64,000 bases of DNA from Clostridia bacterium (GTDB taxonomy: Bacteria > Bacillota > Clostridia > Christensenellales > CAG-917). Below are positions 2,905 to 59,821 of the stretch, in pieces. A model generated the notes under the pieces. The model did no database searches and was not told the DNA's origin. It saw nothing but the letters and a program-made list of their open reading frames with translations. The stretch spans positions 1,613 to 65,612 of the forward strand of contig JAQUST010000004.1 of assembly GCA_028710495.1 (NCBI GenBank), read 5' to 3'. Position numbers and translations under genes: made by a program. Positions within the stretch are counted from its first letter, which is position 1, and every line of letters begins with the position of its first letter.

Positions 2905-2984
2905 ATAATAAATAAATTTGTAATTACAACAGCTTTTGAGAAAACATAAGATATGTTTCTGCAGGCAGAAAACAAGGACTTGAT

Positions 2985-3743
2985 ATGAGAGAAGACATTA
3001 AAATTATTTTTGAAGATAATCACATACTCGTGGTTTCAAAACCACCATTTGTACCCGTTCAAGAGGATGAGAGCGGAGACGAAGACATGCTTACTGCATT
3101 GAAAAAGTATTTGATTGAAAAATACAACAAGCCCGGAGATGCTTTTCTTGGACTTGTGCACAGGCTTGACCGCCCGACCGGTGGGGTTATGGTCTTTGCA
3201 AAAACCTCAAAAGCGGCTGCACGACTTAGCGAAGCGATAAGAAATGGCGAAGTTGAAAAACGATATCTTACAGTTGTCCACGGTGAACCCCGTGACAAAC
3301 AAAGAAAACTGGTCAATTACCTGAAAAAATATCCTGAAATAAACACCGTAAAGGTTGTTCCATCGTTGACCGAGGGAGCAAAGTACGCCGAACTTGATTA
3401 CAAAGTTTTGGATACTAAGGAGGGTATGAGCCTAGTGCTCGTCAATCTAATAACAGGACGCAGTCATCAAATTCGAGTGCAAATGGCAACAATCGGTCAT
3501 TCGGTTGTGGGAGATTGCAAGTACGGAAATGATGAAAATCTAAAACTACCGATATGCCTATGGGCGGCAGAACTGCGTTTCAGTCATCCGATAAGCGGAC
3601 AAAAAATGGTGTTTAAGGTTTATCCGCCTGAGGATTTGCCTTACTGGAATTTATTCGATATTGACCAATATCTCAGGATATCAGTCAAAAACGATGCGAC
3701 TCTTGATGTTACTGACACAACAATCGAGAATTATGATAAATAA
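2985..3743 (+). CDS. RluA-family pseudouridine synthase (no S4 domain)
   Basis: 252 aa. Catalytic motif HRLDRPTGGVMVFAK, and GRSHQIRVQMA typical of the RluA/RsuA superfamily. AAGGA lies 6 nt upstream. Confidence 0.85.
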   Translation: MREDIKIIFEDNHILVVSKPPFVPVQEDESGDEDMLTALKKYLIEKYNKPGDAFLGLVHRLDRPTGGVMVFAKTSKAAARLSEAIRNGEVEKRYLTVVHGEPRDKQRKLVNYLKKYPEINTVKVVPSLTEGAKYAELDYKVLDTKEGMSLVLVNLITGRSHQIRVQMATIGHSVVGDCKYGNDENLKLPICLWAAELRFSHPISGQKMVFKVYPPEDLPYWNLFDIDQYLRISVKNDATLDVTDTTIENYDK

Positions 3744-7931: not shown

Positions 7932-8426
7932 CTATCCAATAGACGCTTTTGTCAAGTAAGCGTCTTTTTCTAATCTTCGCTTTATTGTGGACAATAAAGC
8001 GATATTGCCGTATTCTTCAGAAAGCCATTTTTCATCAAAACCTTGAGTGGACAAAATATGCTCAAAATCGCTCATTGCGCTGTCATAACGGCGAAATACT
8101 GTGCGGAGAACGACATCGGTTTGATCTGCAATTTCTTGAAATGTTTTTCTTTCAAAAAATCTCAAGCGCAATAGTTCATTGTGAGTTGGGGAAAGTTGTT
8201 CAAGACCACTTTCAACAATTACTTTTATATTGCAGATTCTGCGCTTTTCATCGTTTAATTCAATAATTGATTTGAATAAATCTTCATTTTGAATGCCTAA
8301 ACGCAGGTGTTTTGATTGAAAACCACTTTTTACACGTGATTTTACTGAGAAATCAATAAATTTTACTATTTTGGGTAACGCAGAAAATGCAACAAGCAAC
8401 GTGTTGCACCAAGAATTATTTTTCAA
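7932..8426 (-). CDS. Small protein with only a sigma-70 region-4-type HTH (function unknown)
   Basis: 164 aa. LSPTHNELLRLRFFERKTFQEIADQTDVVLRTVFRRYDSA looks like a sigma-70 region 4 / ECF-type HTH, and no region 2 is recognisable. TTG start at 8426 is preceded by AGGAGGT with a 5-nt spacer (minus strand). Confidence 0.6.
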   Translation of the reverse strand: MKNNSWCNTLLVAFSALPKIVKFIDFSVKSRVKSGFQSKHLRLGIQNEDLFKSIIELNDEKRRICNIKVIVESGLEQLSPTHNELLRLRFFERKTFQEIADQTDVVLRTVFRRYDSAMSDFEHILSTQGFDEKWLSEEYGNIALLSTIKRRLEKDAYLTKASIG

Positions 8427-8670: not shown

Positions 8671-9672
8671 TTAGAATAACGCAAGCGAAAACACAAAACA
8701 CAAAATGAAACTAATTATTGCTTGAGTAAGTTTCTGAGTAATAATTGTTTTTACTTTAATTTTACAGCGAGACAAAAATGTTATGCATTGAGCCAATATA
8801 CTTAACCCTCCAAAGGAGATAATTGCACAACATAATGGAACGCTTATGATCTTTGATACGCTCAATCTGCTTGCCATATAACTGCCGTTTGTCATTTCAA
8901 CCATTCCTGACAATATGGTCGTGGTTATGTCTGCTGGTAAAACAAATGATAATGCAGATGAAATAAATGAAATAACGCCAACATTTGTGAGCGCATTCAA
9001 AAATATTGTGAAAACGCAGATAAAACCACCAACAATAAGAATTGAATTTGTCGCAGAAATGATAGATTCAGATAAAATATTATTACAGTTGTCTATAAGC
9101 ACAGGATTTGAATTTGTTTGAGATATGTCGCGTTTTCGTCCTCTATACAATAGCCCGTTTAGTAAAGCAGAAAGGTAATGTGCGAGCAAAATTACAACGC
9201 CCACCATTACATCATTAAACATAATTGAACCTACTGTGCCTAGAATAAAAATAGGGTTTGAAGTTGAGCAAAAGGCCGCGCATTTTTTTGCATCGGCTGA
9301 TGACAGCATATTGTTGGTGTGAAAGTCGGAAGTTAGTTTTGCACCTATCGGGTAGCCTGAAAGTATACTCATAGTGAACACATAGGCCGACAGTGGCGGA
9401 GCATTGAATAAAAATCTAAAAGGTTTTTTGCCCAGCGTTGCAATATTCTTTGCAACGCCGAGCTTTGTCAAGAAGGTGGAAAAAAAGAAAAAAGGAAAGA
9501 GTGCAGGAAGTACGGAAACAGCAAAAAGAAGAATTCCGTCGCGCGCAGACTTTATATAAATTGCCGGTTGAACCAGCAATAAAACCATAAGAAAGCCACA
9601 AAAAATTATTGCAAGCATTCTTAACGGGGAAAGCCGTTTGAACATTCTTTGTATCAAGGCAAGACAGCGCAT
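8671..9672 (-). CDS. ylbJ: Sporulation integral membrane protein YlbJ family (nucleoside-recognition-type membrane protein)
   Basis: 333 aa and polytopic. The N-terminal ARDGILLFAVSVLPALFPFFFFS pattern is typical of YlbJ, and the position near ylbM/rpmF matches Bacillus. No clear SD, so the start is uncertain. Confidence 0.7.
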   Translation of the reverse strand: MRCLALIQRMFKRLSPLRMLAIIFCGFLMVLLLVQPAIYIKSARDGILLFAVSVLPALFPFFFFSTFLTKLGVAKNIATLGKKPFRFLFNAPPLSAYVFTMSILSGYPIGAKLTSDFHTNNMLSSADAKKCAAFCSTSNPIFILGTVGSIMFNDVMVGVVILLAHYLSALLNGLLYRGRKRDISQTNSNPVLIDNCNNILSESIISATNSILIVGGFICVFTIFLNALTNVGVISFISSALSFVLPADITTTILSGMVEMTNGSYMASRLSVSKIISVPLCCAIISFGGLSILAQCITFLSRCKIKVKTIITQKLTQAIISFILCFVFSLALF

Positions 9673-9821: not shown

Positions 9822-10922
9822 TTAATTTTCGGTTTGAATCAGTGAAAGAAGTTTCGCGGCTTTTTCGTCCATGTCAATGAGAGGGCGGATTTTATTTTTA
9901 GTAGAGCAGTCAGAGGGTTTCAAAAACAAATTTTTTGTTGAAGTGCCAATTAGACTCAAGATATCTTTTCTGTCTTCTCGTAATGCCAATACTCTTAAAT
10001 ATGGTTTTGAACTTAAAGCGAGTTCAAGAAGTTCTTGCTTTAACCCAAGTGTTGAGCAAGCCGCTATGCGTTTTATTGTTGCTTTAGTATATCTTTTTGA
10101 AGTGAGAGCAGTAACTTCACTCATCGATGTAAAAGTAAATTTTTTCAAGCGGTTTTCAAAACCTTCGCGAATATTTGCAATGTTGTGAAGTTGTTCAGCT
10201 GAAAGGGTGTTTAGAGCATAAAGACAAATGGCATCAAGTTTTTTGTAGTCGGGGCAGGTTGCTTTGACAAAAGGCGGAACAGATTTTGAAAAATCAGAGT
10301 GTTCCTTGATTTTTTTTCTTATCTGAGTTGAACTCAAAAAATTCTCCGTTTTTGCACTTGCAAAACGCTTTACTGTGTGAAAATCTATATCCATCTTGAG
10401 GGCACGAGCGGCTTTCAAATATTCAACGCCCAAAATATTGTTTGGTGTTCCAACCAATTCACTTACAAAAGCATCTTTTTCATCAAGTGTCAAAGTTCTA
10501 CTTTTTGCAACAGAAAAACCTTGCGACATATAGTTTTTGAACATTGTTTTGAATTCTTTGTTTTCATTGGTGAGACAATCAACTGCACTTTCCAAATCCT
10601 CAAGATTTCCGCACTCGCTTCCAAATGAAAGCATAAATTTTCCCAAAGGCTTTAAGGTTTTCAATGCACCGTAAGCAAAATTATGCGCAGGAGAAAGCGT
10701 ATAAACAATAGGAAGTTCAAAAACGCAATCCGCGCCAGCTTGAATCGCCCAATTTGCTCGAGTTGTTTTATCGGCAACGCAAATATCTCCACGCTGAGTG
10801 AAGCTACCACTCATCAATACGATAAGAGTGTCGCATCCGGTTTCAGCTTTAGCCTTTGCAATATGGTAAAGATGACCGTTGTGAAATGGATTGTATTCAG
10901 CTATTATTGCGCAAATTTTCAT
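9822..10922 (-). CDS. tmcAL: tRNA(Met) cytidine acetate ligase (YlbM/UPF0348 nucleotidyltransferase)
   Basis: 366 aa. The N-terminus MKICAIIAEYNPFHNGHLYH matches the YlbM/TmcAL HIGH-like nucleotidyltransferase signature. Confidence 0.8.
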   Translation of the reverse strand: MKICAIIAEYNPFHNGHLYHIAKAKAETGCDTLIVLMSGSFTQRGDICVADKTTRANWAIQAGADCVFELPIVYTLSPAHNFAYGALKTLKPLGKFMLSFGSECGNLEDLESAVDCLTNENKEFKTMFKNYMSQGFSVAKSRTLTLDEKDAFVSELVGTPNNILGVEYLKAARALKMDIDFHTVKRFASAKTENFLSSTQIRKKIKEHSDFSKSVPPFVKATCPDYKKLDAICLYALNTLSAEQLHNIANIREGFENRLKKFTFTSMSEVTALTSKRYTKATIKRIAACSTLGLKQELLELALSSKPYLRVLALREDRKDILSLIGTSTKNLFLKPSDCSTKNKIRPLIDMDEKAAKLLSLIQTEN

Positions 10923-27819: not shown

Positions 27820-30018
27820 ATGAATAGATTTTTCAAGCTTAGTATTTTGGTTGTCATCATCGTGGTTGTTGCAGTGTTTGGATTATCCGCCTGCAACACC
27901 GCCGATACAAAAGTTGGCGTTGAGCTTTTACTCAACGGAAACTTTGAACAATGGACAACTACATCCTCATCATCAACATCAGGAAAATTCGATAATTGGA
28001 CAAAAGGTACTCTCGGCGATGTCGAGAGTTATACCGTACAAAGAATGTCGCATGTTTCAACCGACTCAACAAAGCCGGATGATGCAGGTGATTATGCTTT
28101 GGTTGTCACAAATTCGTCTGCAAGCGCAAGCTATATGAGCCAAAGTGTCAGAGTTGATAAAAACGCTACATATCACATTCGGTATTTTGTGAAAATGACA
28201 ACTCCAGTTACTGTTGGCGCAGACGATTATGCAGTTGGCCCGCACCTTTCTTTCCTTGAAAATACCGACTATGTCATTGAAGAAGTTACTACTGTTGGTC
28301 AATGGGTAGAGGTCAATGCTTATGTTGTTCCGCGCAATACTGATTATTTGACTGTGTGTCTTATGGTCGGAGCTGAAGGTCGCAGCGCAACAGGAACAGC
28401 ATATTTTGACAGCGTTTCAATGACAAAAGTTGACAGCGTTCCGACAGGCACTACAATTGTGGAAATATTCCGTGATAGAGTCGCAAGATACAATATCAAT
28501 GTGGCGGGCACACTGTTTGTTACTTTGATTGCTGTTTTCTCTGTTTTGATTTCAATTTGTGCATATATCCTCATAAGAAGAACTTATCGTGGCAAACGCG
28601 CATTCTTAAACATAGATGAACTTATTGCAAAGAAAACTGATGATGAACCAAAAAATCTAAAAATCAAACGCATTCTAACGCACCCTGCAGCTATTGCTTG
28701 TTATTTGGGTCTTGGAACTTTGCTTGTCCGCTTGATATTTGTTTTTTCGATGTATGGATTTGGAAGCGAAATAACGAACCAAATCACAGTTTCTAGCACA
28801 GTATTTTCAAAAGGAATTTTGCAAGCGTATGCAAGCCTAAGCGGCGCAAATGCTTTGATGTCGCCGGGTGAGCTGTATATATTGTATATTATTGGTGCAA
28901 TGGGCAAAGATTTGAGCTTGTTTGACAACTCAATTCTTATTAGAATGGTTTCAGTTTTAGCTGATATTGCAGTTGTTTTGACAATATATTTCTATGGCAA
29001 ACACTATGTTGGAAACAAGCTTTCAACTATATATGCAGGACTTTATGCATTGCTTCCAATCGCATTTGTTCTTTCAGGACTTCGCGGATCTTTCACTTCA
29101 GTGCTCATTGCACTGGTATTGCTAAGCATCATATTGATGATTGAGAAGAAATATGTTCCTATGTATGCGCTTATTGTTTTGGCAGTATTGCTTGACATAA
29201 GAGCAATGGCAGTTGTTCCGCTTATGCTATTCTATCTGGGTTATTGTTACTATCGTGCTGAAAAAACGATGCAGAAATTTAGCAAATCCCGTGCTTTAAT
29301 ATTATTCGGTTTTATTTTGAGTCTTGCCGTTTTCTATTGTTTGACAATCCCGTTCGCATACAATTATATGCAGACAGGAGAGCCTTTCTTCATTCTCGCG
29401 AAATACAAGAGTATGGTTGCTTCAACAACTGCGTTTGTTGACAATGCATTCAATCTTTACGGAATGGTTGGCATGAACCAAAAGACAGTAAATAGCACAG
29501 CTTCTATTTTCAATCTCATATTTATACTTGTTCTTATCATCTATGTGATATCACTTTATGTTAAAAACAAAAATAAGCTTGAGTTGTTGTTGCTTGCTTC
29601 ATTCACTTTTGCAGTGATTGCGGTCTTTACGCTCAAAGTCACCGAAACTTATTTGATACTTTCACTTGCGCTTATGTTGGTCTACATTATGATTGCAGGC
29701 GAAAAGAGAATGTATATTGTGTTCTCTATGTATTCTGTGCTTGCTTTCCTTGTATTAGCTCAGCTGATGAATCAATCGGGATTTGTGACAACATACAGCA
29801 ACACAGTTATGAGTGATTATGAAAGTACAGGAGTGTTTTATATTTTGTTTTCTGTTGTCACAGTTCTAACTACATTATATTATGGCTACGTGACTTACTC
29901 AATTTGCAACAACAGCAAAACTGTTGATATTCTTCCTATGAATAAGCCTTTCATTTCGACAGTGAAAGATTGGGCAAATAAGAAAACAGTTGCAATTAGA
30001 GCAAAAAATACGAAATAG
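27820..30018 (+). CDS. Large membrane protein: lipobox signal, CBM-like beta-sandwich, polytopic (GT-C-like?) domain
   Basis: 732 aa. Signal/lipobox ...VFGLSAC (Cys25, nt 27892-27894). Residues about 33-205 run from LLLNGNFEQW to GTAYFDSVSMTKV, resembling CBM4/9-type galactose-binding-like modules. At least 10 hydrophobic helices follow. AAGGAAG SD. Confidence 0.6.
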   Translation: MNRFFKLSILVVIIVVVAVFGLSACNTADTKVGVELLLNGNFEQWTTTSSSSTSGKFDNWTKGTLGDVESYTVQRMSHVSTDSTKPDDAGDYALVVTNSSASASYMSQSVRVDKNATYHIRYFVKMTTPVTVGADDYAVGPHLSFLENTDYVIEEVTTVGQWVEVNAYVVPRNTDYLTVCLMVGAEGRSATGTAYFDSVSMTKVDSVPTGTTIVEIFRDRVARYNINVAGTLFVTLIAVFSVLISICAYILIRRTYRGKRAFLNIDELIAKKTDDEPKNLKIKRILTHPAAIACYLGLGTLLVRLIFVFSMYGFGSEITNQITVSSTVFSKGILQAYASLSGANALMSPGELYILYIIGAMGKDLSLFDNSILIRMVSVLADIAVVLTIYFYGKHYVGNKLSTIYAGLYALLPIAFVLSGLRGSFTSVLIALVLLSIILMIEKKYVPMYALIVLAVLLDIRAMAVVPLMLFYLGYCYYRAEKTMQKFSKSRALILFGFILSLAVFYCLTIPFAYNYMQTGEPFFILAKYKSMVASTTAFVDNAFNLYGMVGMNQKTVNSTASIFNLIFILVLIIYVISLYVKNKNKLELLLLASFTFAVIAVFTLKVTETYLILSLALMLVYIMIAGEKRMYIVFSMYSVLAFLVLAQLMNQSGFVTTYSNTVMSDYESTGVFYILFSVVTVLTTLYYGYVTYSICNNSKTVDILPMNKPFISTVKDWANKKTVAIRAKNTK

Positions 30019-34961: not shown

Positions 34962-36326
34962 TTATTCAGCTAATGCAACAACTTCTTGTTCAGTTGTTTC
35001 ATCGAGTATAAGTTCATTTGGATTTTCTTCATCGACTATCGAGTCGCCTTCGTCAGATACTTTCTTAAATTTAATGCGGATTGCACCACGAATAAGTGTC
35101 AAGACGGCAATGCCGCCAGCGAATATATAGAACCATATACGCATACTAAAAATTGAAATGATACCGAGCAATGAAACTGAATCCAACCAAGCCATACTCA
35201 TATAATCAAGTGCTCCGCGTCTTGCGTTGCTGGTGACTGGGTTTGCAGGATCAATATCAAAAACTGTCAATATCATATCTTGAGCGAGAAAGTCTTCTGG
35301 AACTGCACCAAGCATATCCATAATCGTCCATCTGAAAAGAAATTCATCTTCCGGGTCAAGTCCAGCTGCTTCTAAAACATCAGCATCCTGTTCGATAGTA
35401 TTTGTGTCAATACCAGTATTTTTTTCGCCTGTTGCAGGATTTTTTGTTGTTCTGATTTGGCTGTCTGAAACATAAGAGAAAAGGACATCATTAAGCAGGT
35501 TGGTTGACGCCATAACAAAATCCATATTTTCCATTGCGCATTCAATGAGGAGTGGATTGAAGGCAGCATAGGCAGCATCAATTGAGTTGAAAACATTTTT
35601 TATAAGAGCAGTGACTTCTGCGTTATCCAATGCTTCAGCTTTGTATGCTGCGACTACATCGGACTGCTTTGTAGAAATTGCTGCGAATGTTGAATGATCC
35701 CAAGCTGAAACCAGTGAAACTGTATCGGGATACATATATGTTCCGCCACGAAATTCTTTTGAAAGTGAATCAAATGTTGCTTTGTATTCTTCGGCAGTCA
35801 TACTTGACAATGTCTCATTTGCAACTGCTTTGTCAATTTCAGCATAAGCTTTTTTTGTCAAAAATCCGTTTTCGACGTTCAGTTCAATAAAAGTGTCAAC
35901 GAGATTTCTTTGAACTTGATTTTGTACGGCATAGTTTGCGACTATGTCTTCATAATTCACAGTTCCTTGTGTTGCATCACTCAAAACTGCGGGTAGTGCA
36001 AAATCGAAAACAACCATAAGTCCGCACAAACAAGCTACAACGGCTATAGACATTTTCATTGTTTGTTTCTTGAAATTTGAACGGTGTTTTCTGCCCTCTT
36101 TGAATGTGCGCTTTGAGCTTGTACGGAAACAAATTTCGACTATACCGCAAATGAGCATCATTGCGCCTGCAAGAATAACTGGAATATATGCCATTACACC
36201 ATATATATTTTGAGCAATGAAGTCCATACTCGCAAGATATCCAAGTGCAACAAGTGCAGGGAAACCAATTAGATAGAGAACAACATCCGCAACTATAAGC
36301 AACGCTTTTTTTGTTTTTGAATTCAT
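34962..36326 (-). CDS. Hypothetical membrane protein, paralog B (3 N-terminal TM, large exposed domain, C-terminal TM, acidic tail)
   Basis: 454 aa. Shares YLIGFPAL, VEI, FDFALPAVLSDATQG and a C-terminal WFYIFAGGIAVLTLI with the upstream gene. No family recognised. Confidence 0.65.
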   Translation of the reverse strand: MNSKTKKALLIVADVVLYLIGFPALVALGYLASMDFIAQNIYGVMAYIPVILAGAMMLICGIVEICFRTSSKRTFKEGRKHRSNFKKQTMKMSIAVVACLCGLMVVFDFALPAVLSDATQGTVNYEDIVANYAVQNQVQRNLVDTFIELNVENGFLTKKAYAEIDKAVANETLSSMTAEEYKATFDSLSKEFRGGTYMYPDTVSLVSAWDHSTFAAISTKQSDVVAAYKAEALDNAEVTALIKNVFNSIDAAYAAFNPLLIECAMENMDFVMASTNLLNDVLFSYVSDSQIRTTKNPATGEKNTGIDTNTIEQDADVLEAAGLDPEDEFLFRWTIMDMLGAVPEDFLAQDMILTVFDIDPANPVTSNARRGALDYMSMAWLDSVSLLGIISIFSMRIWFYIFAGGIAVLTLIRGAIRIKFKKVSDEGDSIVDEENPNELILDETTEQEVVALAE

Positions 36327-36329
36327 AGT

Positions 36330-37364
36330 TTAGTCCTCCTTTCCTTCAGCTATTGCTCTGAGTTTTTCATTGCAATATCCGACTAGAATTGTTGAGAGTG
36401 CAACTAGACCGATAAAGATGTAGATGTAGTTTCTTGCAACAAACAGCGGGTAGATTTGAGCTTTTGTAGCTAGCTCGGTTTTGAGAATATAGAGGTCACT
36501 CAAACTCATATGTGAAGTGCTTGTTGTCTCACCGATAGCAATTTGATAAATATTGTAAGTCGCGGGAATCGAGGTATCAAGACCGACTTCCGAATTGCCG
36601 TTCGCAACATAAGCTCTATGATATGAGACAACTGCCTTTTGCAGATATTCTATTTCAGCGTTTAATTTGTTTTCGACACCGAGAAGATGACCGTCTGTTG
36701 TTGGAGTGCCATCAGTAGCGAAACCAGTGTAGTTGTCGAAATAAAAATCTTCATAGTTGTACCATTTGTTGATACCGTAGAAATCCATAAAGTCATCGGC
36801 ACTGTCTAAAAACTTGCGATATAGAGCTTTGTCGACACGCACTTTGTTTGTGACATTCGTGTACTTGCCAAGCTGATAATTGAATGTTTCTAAATCAGAG
36901 CCATTAAGTAATTGATAACTTACATCTGCAAACTCGGTTGGAATTATCACGGCATCGGTTGTGTCGGCTGATACAACAGTTGCAACACCTTCGTTTACAA
37001 TGTATGCGAGCTCAAAATTGGCGCCCTGCGTTGCAGAGGCATCTATTTTTGGACCGACAAGTTCGTCAAAAAGAATTACCGGCGCTACCATAATAATAAG
37101 ACCTACAACTGCGACAATAATCGTTTGTGCCATTTGATTCTTTTTGCAAGCGAATTTCATAATAAGTCGCACTATTTCAACTACTGCCCACATAATAAAA
37201 ATAACTAAAAGACCATTTGCACACGAAGCCTTAAAAACAGGTTCTCCGAAGAATGGCATAGTTCCAATTGCGGTGAGTAGGAGAAGAAGTGGAAAACCTA
37301 TACAATAAAAAACGGTGCGAAGAACTTTTAGGACTTTGGTTTTCTTCATAATTTTACTCCTCAA
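36330..37364 (-). CDS. Hypothetical membrane protein, paralog A
   Basis: 344 aa. YCIGFPLL, VEI, FDELVGPKIDASATQG and a C-terminal YIYIFIGLVALSTIL. GAGGAG SD. Separated from paralog B by 3 nt. Confidence 0.65.
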   Translation of the reverse strand: MRSKIMKKTKVLKVLRTVFYCIGFPLLLLLTAIGTMPFFGEPVFKASCANGLLVIFIMWAVVEIVRLIMKFACKKNQMAQTIIVAVVGLIIMVAPVILFDELVGPKIDASATQGANFELAYIVNEGVATVVSADTTDAVIIPTEFADVSYQLLNGSDLETFNYQLGKYTNVTNKVRVDKALYRKFLDSADDFMDFYGINKWYNYEDFYFDNYTGFATDGTPTTDGHLLGVENKLNAEIEYLQKAVVSYHRAYVANGNSEVGLDTSIPATYNIYQIAIGETTSTSHMSLSDLYILKTELATKAQIYPLFVARNYIYIFIGLVALSTILVGYCNEKLRAIAEGKED

Positions 37365-42583: not shown

Positions 42584-43522
42584 TCAGATGCTGTCATCGC
42601 GAATGACTTCAGCAGTTGGCGCATTATTACAGATAGATTTTATTCCGTTTTTGCAGCTTGCCTTTGATTTGTAGTCCGATGATATTGCCACAATTTCGCC
42701 GTTTCTTGCGCGCAGGCGGAAACGAAATAAATTGGCGTCATCGTAGTATATTTCCCATTTCGGATTTGCACAAGTAATCGATTTTTGAAGTGTTTGGTCT
42801 TCAATACCCGCTGTTCCAACTATTTTTTGAATGCTAGCGATGCCTGTTTTGCAAGCTGTCAATGATGTATAAGGCTCGCCAGTGGCTATTGTTTCGTGAT
42901 TTGGGGCAAGAAGTCTGAAAACAAAGTTTCCATTTTCGGTTTTTCTTATAATAAATTTTCCGCTGTATGGATGAGGCTCTTCATCTGCTGAATCTGTCTT
43001 TTGCACAGCATCGGTTTTTGCACTCTTTGGTTTTTGTGTTTCTGCAGTTGCAGGTTTCTTCGCGGTCACTTGAGTAGCATTGGTTTTGGGAGCTGCTTTC
43101 TTTTTTGGAGCGGACTTTACTTCAGCGGTCGCTTTTGCTTGATTTTCTAAATCAACAACTTTTTCTTCGACTTTTTCTATTTTCTCAATATTTTCTGTTT
43201 CATCAGAAGTTTTAGAATTTTGATTTTGTTCTAAAACAGGAATGGACTCAAGTTCTGCGGTTGTTTTCGGAAGCGAGTCAACTTCAATTTCGGGTTTGTC
43301 TTCCACTAACATTGCAGGCTCGGAAGTCTCTGGGATTTTTTCTTCGGCAGGATTGTTTTCTACACTAGCTTCAACTATGTTTGCTGTTGCTTGTTCTTCA
43401 ACAGCTATATCATTGACAATTTCTGCTTCTAAAAGTTCATTTTCCTCCGCAACAAGCTCTGCCTCCATAAATACGCTTTCCTCAAGTTGCTTCTTATGTT
43501 TCCTTCTACTAAATAATCCCAT
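42584..43522 (-). CDS. Tandem YegP/DUF1508-domain protein with a long acidic low-complexity N-terminus
   Basis: 312 aa. The C-terminus has two repeats of the YegP pattern (FVFRLLAPNHETIATGEPYTSLTACKTGIASI and FRFRLRARNGEIVAISSDYKSKASCKNGIKSI). The N-terminal ~185 aa are E/A/K/T-rich. AGGAGGG SD. Confidence 0.75.
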   Translation of the reverse strand: MGLFSRRKHKKQLEESVFMEAELVAEENELLEAEIVNDIAVEEQATANIVEASVENNPAEEKIPETSEPAMLVEDKPEIEVDSLPKTTAELESIPVLEQNQNSKTSDETENIEKIEKVEEKVVDLENQAKATAEVKSAPKKKAAPKTNATQVTAKKPATAETQKPKSAKTDAVQKTDSADEEPHPYSGKFIIRKTENGNFVFRLLAPNHETIATGEPYTSLTACKTGIASIQKIVGTAGIEDQTLQKSITCANPKWEIYYDDANLFRFRLRARNGEIVAISSDYKSKASCKNGIKSICNNAPTAEVIRDDSI

Positions 43523-56410: not shown

Positions 56411-57528
56411 TGGAAAATAAACAAAATGAAATAAACGAGTTGCAAACTGAAGCGCCAAAACAATGTTTGCTCTCTATGTCAACTGAAGAAATCGCCGAAG
56501 TATTGGGCGATGTTCCGTCATATCTGGCGGGACAGGTTTTTCAGTTTTTGCACAATGGAAAATTATTTGATGAAATGACGTCAATTTCGAAACAATTGAG
56601 AGAAAAGTTGAACGAAAAATATATTGCTCAGCCACTTAGTGTCGAAAAAGTTTTTGAAGGCAAAGGCGGAGCAAAGAAATATTTGTTCAGATTGATTGAC
56701 AATGAACTTATCGAGGGCGTCTATATGCTTCACGATTATGGCAACACACTGTGCGTTTCTACTCAGGTCGGATGCCGTATGGGATGTGTGTTTTGTGCTT
56801 CAGGTATGAATGGTCTTAAACGCAATCTAACGGCAGGTGAGATACTAGGTCAGGTCATTGCGGTGAACACGCTTGAGGGCGGAAATATCAAAGATAGAAA
56901 GGTCACAAACGTTGTTTTGATGGGAAGTGGTGAACCGCTAGACAATTTCGACAACACGATGAAGTTTTTGACGCTTGCAAACCAAAAAGGTGGGATTTGC
57001 ATAAGCGAGCGCAATATTTCGCTTTCAACTTCAGGACTGTGTGACAAAATAATACTTTTGGCTGACAGCGGACATACGCCTACTTTGACAATATCACTTC
57101 ACGCGCCAAATGATGAAATCCGTGATACAATGATGCCTGTGAACAAAAAGTATTCTATTCATAAAGTTGTTGATTCTGCAAGATATTACTTCAAAAAAAC
57201 AGGGCGCAGAGTAATTTTTGAGTATACGCTTATTTCTGGGAGCAATGACACAATGGAATGCGCGGATGAACTATCAAAACTTGTGAGAGGTTTTCCTTGC
57301 CATGTCAATCTCATTAGGCTAAATCAAGTCAAAGAACTAGGTCTTAAAGGTACTAGTTCTGAAAATTCAAAAGCATTTTTAGAACGGCTTGAACAGAACA
57401 ACACTTCAGCTACAATACGAAAAAGCTTGGGCAATGATATAGAAGGCGCTTGTGGTCAGTTACGCAGAAGATATTTGAATGAAGATATTGAAAAAATAGC
57501 AAAAGAAGGCATAATAAAATCAATTTAG
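56410..57528 (+). CDS. rlmN: 23S rRNA/tRNA (adenine-C2)-methyltransferase RlmN (radical SAM)
   Basis: CVSTQVGCRMGCVFCASG (CxxxCxxC), and GEPL and ISLH motifs. The ATG overlaps the rsmB stop (TAATG). The track start at 56371 is rejected. Confidence 0.92.
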   Translation: MENKQNEINELQTEAPKQCLLSMSTEEIAEVLGDVPSYLAGQVFQFLHNGKLFDEMTSISKQLREKLNEKYIAQPLSVEKVFEGKGGAKKYLFRLIDNELIEGVYMLHDYGNTLCVSTQVGCRMGCVFCASGMNGLKRNLTAGEILGQVIAVNTLEGGNIKDRKVTNVVLMGSGEPLDNFDNTMKFLTLANQKGGICISERNISLSTSGLCDKIILLADSGHTPTLTISLHAPNDEIRDTMMPVNKKYSIHKVVDSARYYFKKTGRRVIFEYTLISGSNDTMECADELSKLVRGFPCHVNLIRLNQVKELGLKGTSSENSKAFLERLEQNNTSATIRKSLGNDIEGACGQLRRRYLNEDIEKIAKEGIIKSI

Positions 57529-57735
57529 CTTATTTCAAATTATTTAAGGATTTTGCTATATTTATATAATATAAAACAATGAAACTAAATCAACAAACTA
57601 AACAACAAACGATGTTGATTAAAATGTGGCAATAACAAATAATATCGAAAATTTTGGTTTATTTGAACTAAATTAACGCTGTGAAACAGTACTAAGCGAA
57701 AAAAACATATAGAAAGAAAGGGAAAATTCAACATA

Positions 57736-58596
57736 ATGGCGAAAGATATTTTGAATGGTAGAGTCATCAAAGGCGTCACATCACGCTACTTCCTTGACAC
57801 AAAAAATGGTGTTAAGGTTGCTTCTGCCCGCAAAAAACTTAAAATCTTTGGCGATATTTTAATTGGCGATTTAGTTGAATTTATAGAGGAACGCGGTACG
57901 TTTGTTATTGAAAAAGTGTTGCCTAGACGAAACACTCTCATAAGACCTTATGTGGCGAATGTTGACACATGCCTTATTGTGATTGCGCCTGTTCCTGAAC
58001 CCGATTTTTTACTCGTTGACAAAGTGCTTATCAACTGCTTGGTAGAGGGCATTGAACCTATTTTGGTGGCAAACAAAATAGATTTAGGCTCACTCAAAGA
58101 ATTGAAAGAATACAATGGTATTTTAGATATTTTTGCTTGTTCTGCAACAGATGGCGAGGGTATTGATGCGCTTGTTGGTGCACTTGACGGCAAAACCGTT
58201 TGCTTTGCCGGTCAATCGGCAGTTGGCAAAAGCTCGATTATAAATGCAATACTCAAAACTGACAGGCTTCAAACTGACGGACTTACAAAGAAAATTCAAA
58301 GAGGCAAACATACTACCCGACAAACCGAACTATTGCGTGTTGGAAGCGCGTACTTGATTGATACTTGTGGATTTAGCCTGCTTGATACTATTGACTTAAA
58401 ACCTGAAGAATTGCGTTTGTATTTTGATGAATTCGAGCTGCTTCAACCGCTATGCCAATTTAAGGCGTGTTGCCATATCAATGAGCCAAATTGCGCTGTC
58501 AAATCTGAAATTGGTATGTCTGTGTCAGAAGGAAGATACAATCGTTACAAAACGATATATAATGAGCTTGTTGAAAGAAAGAATAACAAATTTTAG
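57736..58596 (+). CDS. rsgA: Ribosome small-subunit-dependent GTPase RsgA (CpgA/YloQ)
   Basis: NKIDL ... GQSAVGKSS (permuted GTPase), and a Zn knuckle CQFKACCHINEPNCAV. Confidence 0.9.
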   Translation: MAKDILNGRVIKGVTSRYFLDTKNGVKVASARKKLKIFGDILIGDLVEFIEERGTFVIEKVLPRRNTLIRPYVANVDTCLIVIAPVPEPDFLLVDKVLINCLVEGIEPILVANKIDLGSLKELKEYNGILDIFACSATDGEGIDALVGALDGKTVCFAGQSAVGKSSIINAILKTDRLQTDGLTKKIQRGKHTTRQTELLRVGSAYLIDTCGFSLLDTIDLKPEELRLYFDEFELLQPLCQFKACCHINEPNCAVKSEIGMSVSEGRYNRYKTIYNELVERKNNKF

Positions 58597-58798: not shown

Positions 58799-59455
58799 AT
58801 GTCAAAAGTTTTAGTTGCACCATCAATACTTTCTGCCGACTTTTGCAAGATGGCGGAGGCGGTAAAAAATATAAAAGAGTGGGGTGGAGACCTTATTCAT
58901 TGTGACATTATGGACGGTGTTTTTGTGCCGAATTTTACCTTTGGTATGCCTATGGTCAAAGCTTTGGCAAAATATAGCGAGCTTCCAATAGACGCACATC
59001 TTATGATTATTGAACCAGAACGATATGTCGAGAAATTTTGCGATGCAGGTGCGGACATAGTCACATTTCATCCAGATGCATCAAAAAATGTCAGCAAAGC
59101 ACTTGAATTGATAAAGGCAAAAGGAAAAAAATGCGGACTCGCACTAAATCCTGATAAACCACTTTCAATGATTGAACCGTATTTAGATCAGATTGATGTT
59201 GTGCTGATTATGAGCGTTTATGCCGGCTTTGGCGGACAAAGATTTATAGATGAAAGTCTCCTTAAAATTGGTGATGCCAAAAGTATGATAGAAAACTGTG
59301 GTCGCAAAATTTTGATAGAAGTTGATGGGGGCGTGACAACTGAAAACGCATATCATATCATTCACTCAGGTGCGGATATACTTGTCGCTGGCAACAGCAT
59401 TTTTTCTGCAGAAAATCCTAAATTAGCTATAACAAAAATTAAATCATCACACTAG
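58799..59455 (+). CDS. rpe: Ribulose-phosphate 3-epimerase
   Basis: APSILSADF, HCDIMDG and MSV.AGFGGQ.F motifs. Confidence 0.94.
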   Translation: MSKVLVAPSILSADFCKMAEAVKNIKEWGGDLIHCDIMDGVFVPNFTFGMPMVKALAKYSELPIDAHLMIIEPERYVEKFCDAGADIVTFHPDASKNVSKALELIKAKGKKCGLALNPDKPLSMIEPYLDQIDVVLIMSVYAGFGGQRFIDESLLKIGDAKSMIENCGRKILIEVDGGVTTENAYHIIHSGADILVAGNSIFSAENPKLAITKIKSSH

Positions 59456-59533
59456 AAATAGTTTTTGTAAACAAGAAATTATTGCTAAAACAAAAAAATA
59501 ATCAAATAAGTGCCGCATAGACACTTGTTTTTT

Positions 59534-59563
59534 TTGACACATTTATGATGTGCTGCATATAAT
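59534..59563 (+). promoter_or_regulatory. Promoter upstream of the spoVM-like ORF
   Basis: TTGACA (59534-59539), 18 nt, TATAAT (59558-59563). The overlapping CATATAAT (59556-59563) also resembles a sigma-E-type -10 (CATACAnT). Confidence 0.5.
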
Positions 59564-59589
59564 GCCACGAAAACATTTAGGAGCAAGCT

Positions 59590-59667
59590 ATGAAAATAAT
59601 ATGTATCAGATCCCCCAGATTTTTAAGACCGTTTCTTAGATTATTTAATAGGCGCAAACGGAAGTAA
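59590..59667 (+). CDS. spoVM: SpoVM-like 25-aa sporulation peptide (not in the ORF track)
   Basis: MKIICIRSPRFLRPFLRLFNRRKRK. AGGAG (59579-59583) lies 6 nt upstream. It shares M1, K2, I6, P9, F11 and L12 with B. subtilis SpoVM (MKFYTIKLPKFLGG...). It occupies the rpe / rpmB interval where B. subtilis spoVM lies. Confidence 0.65.
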   Translation: MKIICIRSPRFLRPFLRLFNRRKRK

Positions 59668-59795
59668 CTTTTGTTTTATTAAAAACAAAATCTTATTCTA
59701 TTTCTATAATACAACTTGACAGGATAATGTAAATTTTGATTTATTAAAAACAAAATAGATTATTTTATTATTTTGATAAAATACATATTTATAAA

Positions 59796-59821
59796 CAAAA
59801 AAAGCCCACCAAAAGGTGGGC
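59796..59821 (-). terminator. Intrinsic terminator after rpmB
   Basis: GCCCACC (59804-59810) pairs with GGTGGGC (59815-59821). The plus-strand A8 gives a T8 run on the minus strand. Confidence 0.8.

Follow-up and report, generated by a model that had tools for sequence, protein, structure and literature searches.

The stretch of DNA between rpe and rpmB in the genome of an uncultured member of the Clostridia raises the question of whether an open reading frame (ORF) of only 25 codons is a genuine gene and, if so, whether that gene is spoVM. The ORF lies in the 64-kb stretch that was analysed in full (hereafter, the window). An earlier note on this DNA, which described a spoVM-like frame preceded by AGGAG in the rpe/rpmB interval, was accurate in both respects: the mini-ORF starts with an ATG at 59590, ends with its stop codon at 59667 (+ strand), encodes MKIICIRSPRFLRPFLRLFNRRKRK and is matched by SpoVM profiles, and the Shine-Dalgarno sequence AGGAG (59579-59583, +) stands 6 nt 5' of the start codon. 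Two syntenic anchors frame it, namely rpe (ribulose-phosphate 3-epimerase; 58799-59455, +) upstream and the convergent rpmB (ribosomal protein L28; 59858-60049, -) downstream. Further out are rsmB, rlmN and rsgA on the upstream side, and asp23 with a gene encoding a DAK2-domain protein on the downstream side. Between rpe and the mini-ORF, a hairpin, AAGTGCCGCATAGACACTT, followed by GTTTTTTTT (59508-59535, +; also detected on the opposite strand) is likely the terminator of rpe, and a GC-rich hairpin with a T-run resembling it precedes the promoter in four of the related loci introduced below (L001, L012, L013 and L016). Next come a -35 element, TGACA (59535-59539, +; family consensus T-n-A-C-A in an alignment anchored on CATAnnnT), and a -10 element of the sigma-E/sigma-K type, CATATAAT (59556-59563, +), which overlaps a sigma-A TATAAT. 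Taken together, the rpe terminator, the promoter, the Shine-Dalgarno sequence and the 25-codon coding sequence would constitute a small transcription unit of its own.

The spacer between the mini-ORF and rpmB is itself structured, as it folds much more stably than shuffled sequences do (z = -5.0). It contains a 28-nt direct repeat, the two copies of which (59664-59691 and 59729-59756) are 93% identical; each is an AT-only palindrome, TTTTGTTTTATTAAAAACAAAA, and the first, on the + strand, overlaps the stop codon of the mini-ORF. This candidate element may be a weak terminator (or a pair of them) or a protein-binding site. Closer to rpmB, the GC-rich hairpin GCCCACCTTTTGGTGGGC (59804-59821) is the rpmB terminator, called on the - strand, and it also forms a stable hairpin in the + strand RNA; it may thus work in both directions and end the spoVM transcript as well. 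The possibility that the mini-ORF is a leader peptide or attenuator of rpmB was rejected, because the two genes are convergent and lie on opposite strands. With regard to the wider neighbourhood, rlmN directly precedes rsgA, with no prpC/prkC between them, both in the window (57528-57736) and in all relatives examined (L002-L019); in B. subtilis, a prpC/prkC pair (Ser/Thr phosphatase and kinase) occupies that position. Elsewhere in the window, ORFs of 732, 454 and 344 aa (27820-30018, +; 34962-36326, -; 36330-37364, -) have no Pfam match at E<=1e-3 and no NCBIfam match at E<=1e-25, and two C-terminal DUF1508 repeats are the sole recognisable feature of a 312-aa protein (42584-43522, -).

Short frames are common in DNA of this composition, and the first alternative to be weighed is that the mini-ORF arose by chance in AT-rich intergenic DNA and encodes nothing. 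It comprises only 25 codons in a genome of 36% GC, and 8 kb of this DNA contains 120 ORFs of at least 20 aa. To set against this, 24 loci were retrieved from one-per-species genomes with the Rpe protein of the window as the query. All belong to metagenome-assembled genomes (MAGs) of uncultured Clostridia, several of which are labelled Christensenella or Christensenellales, and their Rpe proteins are 43-77% identical to that of the window (49-77% among the genomes that have the mini-ORF). The ORF and its ribosome-binding site are kept in these relatives: a mini-ORF with a GGAGG-type Shine-Dalgarno sequence adjoins rpe in 15 of the 24 loci (inverted in two), rpmB follows on the - strand in 13 of those 15, and wherever rpe and rpmB are neighbours, the mini-ORF lies between them (14 of 14 sources, window included). 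Across the window and these 15 loci, GGAGG or AGGAG stands at the equivalent place in every case (16/16), and the encoded peptides, mostly of 23-32 aa (37 aa in L016), align easily; their consensus is M(N)KIICINPPKIVKAILRLF with a basic tail after it, and M1, C5 and P9 do not vary.

The pattern of substitution is that of a coding sequence. Within a subgroup of nine genomes whose peptides start with MNK, codons vary at 18 of 20 third positions and at 5 of 20 second positions; single pairs differ by as many as 12 synonymous codons but by 2-3 nonsynonymous ones, and the window differs from its relative L001 by 7 synonymous and 4 nonsynonymous codons. The mini-ORF is a real gene under purifying selection. 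The persistence of the ORF in 16 genomes despite Rpe identities of only 49-77%, a Shine-Dalgarno sequence that is kept, predominantly synonymous change and the specificity of the SpoVM profile matches described below leave the chance-ORF reading a practically negligible probability, and it is effectively refuted. The gene is single-copy, no second match having been found in the window or the related loci. An Rfam scan of the mini-ORF region returned nothing near a gathering score, and its weak matches fell in the rpmB terminator region, off the ORF. Some of the retrieved loci (L007, L010, L015 and L020-L024) have neither a SpoVM-like ORF in the fetched flanks nor rpmB downstream of rpe, which would reflect a rearrangement of the locus or a loss of the gene. 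It should be noted that two records (L002 and L012) are titled 'uncultured Bacteroidaceae bacterium', yet their rlmN-rsgA-rpe loci are typical of Firmicutes, and L012 additionally holds a SpoVM-like ORF, rpmB and asp23; these labels look wrong. In exact-sequence look-ups of public protein collections, most peptides of the family were absent, and one cluster was named 'hypothetical protein'.

Whether this gene is spoVM was approached through profile comparisons, in which the proposed match to the SpoVM family held up. Among 18,950 NCBIfam models, NF033436 (SpoVM_broad) is the sole match of the window peptide (E=4.2e-4, 20.2 bits, residues 1-24), at a score below the curated cutoff of 31 bits; 4 of the 16 family members match this model at E<=1, the best at 3.2e-6. 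In Pfam, no SpoVM-related family matches the window peptide or its relatives at E<=10 (16 peptides), and such matches as the relatives have are weak, at chance level and to unrelated families. A hidden Markov model (HMM) was also derived from nothing but the published alignment of SpoVMs, both known and newly translated (Galperin et al. 2012, Fig. S4). Applied to 7,903 six-frame stop-to-stop segments, taken from the 24 loci and the window, it placed rpe-adjacent mini-ORFs in all of the first seven ranks, and the window ORF ranked second (E=1.4e-4). When the new family was compared with those SpoVMs by hhalign, the probability was 96.1% (E=2.9e-9) and the alignment ran end to end, over 25 of 25 columns. 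BLASTP gave a gapless alignment of 23 residues between the window peptide and C. novyi SpoVM (48% identity, 70% positives). An hmmsearch of PDB sequences with the family profile did not retrieve SpoVM, although SpoVM entries exist there, which points to the limits of hmmsearch for 25-residue profiles.

Residues that are diagnostic of SpoVM lead in the same direction. The sharing of M1, K2, I6, P9, F11 and L12 with B. subtilis SpoVM, as put forward in the earlier note, is correct when judged against the PDB 2MVH sequence, which had been quoted correctly, and R17 is shared as well. Pro9 is reported to be the sole fully conserved residue of SpoVM and to be required for curvature recognition (Ribis et al. 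2017, PMC5607322). In the new family, it never varies (16/16), and the same holds for the published SpoVMs (19/19) and for the distinct canonical metagenome peptides considered below (44/44); it also falls in the same register in the hhalign alignment. Positions K2, I6 and I15 of SpoVM are functionally critical (PMC5607322, Fig. 1 legend); the first two are identical in the window peptide, and at position 15 the hydrophobic character is kept by a phenylalanine, which also occurs in accepted SpoVMs (e.g., B. clausii and Paenibacillus, GGFV). In most relatives, the corresponding residue is I or V. An amphipathic segment past Pro9 is likewise predicted: the hydrophobic moment, as calculated from sequence, reaches 1.09 at residues 10-21, the highest among the SpoVMs compared, and the maximum in an 11-residue segment, 1.03 (shuffle p=0.035), is on a par with accepted SpoVMs or higher.

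Synteny provides a further line of evidence. For this purpose, metagenomes were scanned with six SpoVMs published for clostridia, a query that is independent of Rpe, and the 55 loci returned served as a canonical set. In these loci, rpmB(-) follows spoVM at a distance of 120-360 nt in 50 of 55, and rpe lies upstream in 45 of 55; indeed, the proximity of spoVM to rpmB is known to be conserved (PMC5607322). The canonical order is rsgA-rpe-(about 0.7 kb)-spoVM-rpmB(-)-asp23, and the window order, rsgA-rpe-mini-ORF-rpmB(-)-asp23-dak2, matches it except that the intervening gene of approximately 0.7 kb is lacking. The claim that the mini-ORF occupies the position of spoVM, next to rpmB and downstream of rpe/thiN, is thus borne out by a shared canonical order.

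The second alternative bears on this evidence. The peptide could be membrane-active but unrelated to SpoVM (a type I toxin, for instance, or something antimicrobial-like) and resemble it simply by being short, basic and amphipathic. It is indeed short, with a net charge of +10 and an amphipathic helix, and its profile scores are modest for a peptide of such length. Nonetheless, mere resemblance would have to account for an end-to-end alignment with SpoVM, an invariant Pro9 in the same register, an exact positional orthology with canonical spoVM at a fixed syntenic site and a mother-cell-type promoter (see below), and type I toxin traits such as an antisense RNA, several copies and a variable location do not apply to a mini-ORF that is single-copy and near which no antisense RNA or Rfam family was detected. 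An unrelated peptide is therefore highly improbable. Because the HMM, hhalign, BLASTP, diagnostic residues and synteny agree, the mini-ORF is very probably orthologous to spoVM, in a member of the Clostridia that is uncultured and Christensenellales-like, and the proposal of an unannotated spoVM-like mini-gene is upheld by the profile match, the conserved ORF with its Shine-Dalgarno sequence, the positional orthology and the conserved CATAnnnT. The curated score thresholds, which are conservative, are all that it falls short of.

As a SpoVM, the peptide is best compared with those of other clostridia, for example C. novyi MKIIAIKVPKFISKIIRLFKKDK and C. acetobutylicum MKIVAIKLPKFLSNIIKFFFRKKD (Galperin et al. 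2012, Fig. S4; NF033436). With these it shares a similar length (22-27 aa), an MKI(I/V) start, I6, Pro9 and (K/R)10-F11-L12, as well as a hydrophobic/basic amphipathic repeat that ends in RLF and is followed by a basic tail without GG; the slot rsgA-rpe-...-spoVM-rpmB(-)-asp23 and, in a subset of canonical loci, the AC/CATAnnnT promoter are also held in common. The very basic tail and the missing GG had been presented as peculiarities of this copy. Both are present as described, with five K/R in the last six residues and no GG, but a clostridial SpoVM normally has a basic tail and never GG, and the contrast stems from a comparison with B. subtilis SpoVM only. The GG doublet occurs in none of the 44 distinct canonical metagenome SpoVMs and in none of the clostridial rows of Fig. 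S4 of Galperin et al. 2012. As for charge, the net value is +10 in the window, +6 to +9 in canonical clostridial SpoVMs and +4 to +9 in the relatives of the window, and K/R account for five of the last six residues in the window compared with 2-4 in canonical clostridial peptides, so that the basic tail lies only slightly beyond the canonical range. Other features do set the family apart. Cys5 is invariant where canonical SpoVMs have A or T, residue 8 is S/T/P/C where canonical peptides have Leu (44/44), many relatives have a one-residue N-terminal insertion (MNK...) and a PP doublet, and the window and L001 share a second proline, Pro14, at the site of the second Bacillus Gly. In addition, the window peptide, unlike clostridial SpoVMs, does not reach the cutoff of NF033436, and public records contain no annotation of it.

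The SpoVMs of B. subtilis and C. difficile place these differences in context. B. subtilis SpoVM (PDB 2MVH; MKFYTIKLPKFLGGIVRAMLGSFRKD) is also encoded next to rpmB and is a mother-cell-expressed amphipathic peptide, but it differs in having FYT at positions 3-5, GG at 13-14, a helix that is longer by four residues (AMLG) and a net charge of +5. Its gene is sigma-E-dependent and requires SpoIIID (PMC5607322), whereas the -35 of the new family is AC rather than ATA. C. difficile SpoVM, which is clostridial and likewise encoded next to rpmB, has its transcription within the mother cell and binds SpoIVA in vitro (Ribis et al. 2017, PMC5607322). However, it is largely dispensable and its gene is co-located with the Peptostreptococcaceae-specific CD25622 (PMC5607322), so that even a true orthologue in the present organism may matter little.

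The promoter bears on the cell type in which the gene would be expressed. The earlier note had described a TTGACA-18-TATAAT promoter whose -10 overlaps a sigma-E-like element, and this is what the window contains: TTGACA (59534-59539) and TATAAT (59558-59563), 18 nt apart, match the sigma-A consensus at 12 of 12 positions, and CATATAAT overlaps the -10. The two parts of the description fared differently on comparison with the relatives, in that the sigma-E-like -10 is conserved in all 16 family members, but the perfect sigma-A -35 is specific to the window. At the site of TTGACA, the relatives have TTCACA, GTAACA or GTCACA, and the 'TT' of the window hexamer belongs to the T-run of the rpe-terminator hairpin (59508-59535). 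CATAnnnT, on the other hand, lies 18-28 nt 5' of the ATG throughout the family (61 nt in L016), although its background frequency is only 1.55 per kb per strand. A naive estimate puts the chance of its occurrence in all 16 below 1e-17, a figure that ignores relatedness, though the flanks are not conserved. When the upstream regions are anchored on this motif, they show C at -18 (16/16), A at -19 (15/16), A at -17 (14/16) and T at -21 (13/16), while the 14 positions between the -35 and CATAnnnT vary freely and the upstream DNA of the 16 members is otherwise unalignable. In the window, A59537 and C59538 represent the conserved 'AC', 17 nt upstream of CATA, and the family-wide element can be written as AC(A)-17-CATAnnnT.

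Both CATATTAT and CATATAAT are canonical -10 boxes of mother-cell sigma factors (Saujet et al. 2013, PMC3789822), and sigma-E and sigma-K promoters differ at the -35, with ATA in the former and AC in the latter (PMC3789822). By this published consensus, the conserved element reads as a mother-cell-type promoter, labelled sigma-K-like because its -35 is AC, not ATA. As to the factor that acts here, sigma-E and sigma-K are both candidates on sequence grounds; in B. subtilis and C. difficile, spoVM is sigma-E-dependent (PMC517825, PMC5607322). A lineage-specific switch from sigma-E to sigma-K was considered and dropped, because canonical clostridial spoVM loci likewise show AC and never ATA: CATAnnnT lies no more than 60 nt from the ATG in 14 of 49 distinct upstream regions of the canonical set, and in these 14, AC is found at the corresponding position, or one base off, in 11 and ATA in none. 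Since the window has a perfect sigma-A promoter, a contribution of sigma-A, and hence vegetative expression in this particular organism, is possible. Several canonical clostridial loci differ from the family of the window in that their promoter lies inside a hairpin. In seven of them (L031, L032, L037, L040, L046, L055 and L069), a -35 'CAC' and CATAnnnT are contained within a long-loop hairpin (for example, AATCACTCAT...ATGAGTGATT) approximately 40-80 nt upstream of spoVM, and a T-run follows just before the ribosome-binding site. In such an arrangement, read-through from upstream would terminate, and transcripts from the internal promoter would lack the left arm of the hairpin. As a separate observation, the full pattern TnACA-16-CATAnnnT has one other occurrence on either strand of the window (2924-2952, +), 33 nt upstream of a gene for an RluA-family pseudouridine synthase (2985-3743); this occurrence may be coincidental, as approximately 0.7 are expected by chance.

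The presence of a spoVM orthologue behind a mother-cell-type promoter leads to the question of whether the organism sporulates. The 64-kb window offers a single sporulation-linked gene besides the spoVM-like ORF, encoding a YlbJ/SpoVV-like membrane protein (8671-9672, -) that matches TIGR02871 with E=3.7e-64 and 217 bits, below the cutoff of 305. It adjoins a gene for a YlbM-type nucleotidyltransferase (flanking ORFs 7932-8426, -, and 9822-10922, -), as it does in B. subtilis. A neighbouring 164-aa ORF contains sigma-70 region 4 only. A sigma-E-like sequence, ATA-15-CATATATT, stands directly upstream of the first ATG of the YlbJ/SpoVV-like ORF, which suggests that the true start lies further downstream. 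Although spoVV/ylbJ is among the conserved cortex genes, it has also been gained in some non-spore-formers (Galperin 2022 survey). A search of the window for other sporulation neighbours found neither gpr nor spoIIP beside lepA, nor prkC near rsgA. According to a published classifier, most, but not all, Christensenellales MAGs are predicted to be non-sporulating (PMC12536801); that classifier is based on gene presence and cannot see spoVM.

Within this context, a third alternative deserves consideration, namely, that a peptide derived from SpoVM has been kept in a non-sporulating lineage and repurposed, for example as a curvature-sensing or FtsH-modulating peptide made vegetatively from the sigma-A-like promoter. 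The perfect TTGACA-18-TATAAT of the window would suit such a role, as would the predominance of predicted non-spore-formers among Christensenellales MAGs (PMC12536801), the sighting of one sub-threshold sporulation gene in 64 kb, and the lineage-specific traits of the peptide (invariant Cys5, S/T/P/C rather than Leu at position 8 and a high charge). However, the sigma-A -35 is absent in the relatives, whereas AC-17-CATAnnnT, which should decay once a sporulation sigma factor is gone, is intact in 16 of 16; moreover, some Christensenellales MAGs are predicted spore-formers (PMC12536801), and the window does contain the YlbJ/SpoVV-like gene. On balance, repurposing appears unlikely. That a mother-cell-type promoter is strictly conserved in all 16 genomes speaks for the presence of a sigma factor to match it, and the spoVM-like gene is a hint that this uncultured lineage of gut Clostridia may be able to sporulate.

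Given the promoter architecture AC(A)-17 nt-CATAnnnT, the product of the gene would be expected in the mother cell of a sporulating organism. Judged from its homologues in B. subtilis and C. difficile, it would form a short amphipathic helix after the kink at the invariant Pro9. From what is known of the family (PMC5607322, PMC3533761), this helix would embed in the convex, i.e., positively curved, outer forespore membrane, where the peptide would bind SpoIVA, tether the basement layer of the spore coat and start coat assembly. Curvature sensing and SpoIVA binding are thus putative properties of the window peptide. It might also be proposed, as a more far-reaching and rather doubtful reading, that a distinct SpoVM subfamily marks cryptic endospore formation in uncultured, Christensenellales-like gut Clostridia, which are usually regarded as non-sporulating, or else has been kept there for a membrane role outside sporulation. 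Such a subfamily would be recognisable by a Cys5 that never varies, by S/T/P/C in place of Leu at position 8, by a PP doublet in many members and by a net charge of up to +10, and a strictly conserved promoter of the sigma-K type (AC -35), not the sigma-E type, would drive it.

SpoVM itself, its genomic position, its frequent omission from annotation and its biology as a coat anchor were all known beforehand. The gene described here is a sub-threshold, publicly unannotated member of this known family and belongs to a recognisable subfamily in Christensenellales-like gut MAGs. SpoVM ranks among the sporulation genes that annotation misses most often, and the existence of 'distant versions' in those clostridia in which standard searches find none had been left open (Galperin et al. 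2012); the present locus is such a distant version. A family-specific profile, combined with the rpe/rpmB position, would allow sub-threshold SpoVMs to be annotated. This is useful for annotation and for the prediction of sporulation in uncultured taxa, given that gene-presence classifiers of sporulation in MAGs miss this spoVM-like gene, even if it will not surprise specialists. The mother-cell promoter conserved in 16 genomes is an indirect sign that some Christensenellales-like gut bacteria may keep a working mother-cell programme, which bears on the transmission of heritable, health-associated gut taxa.
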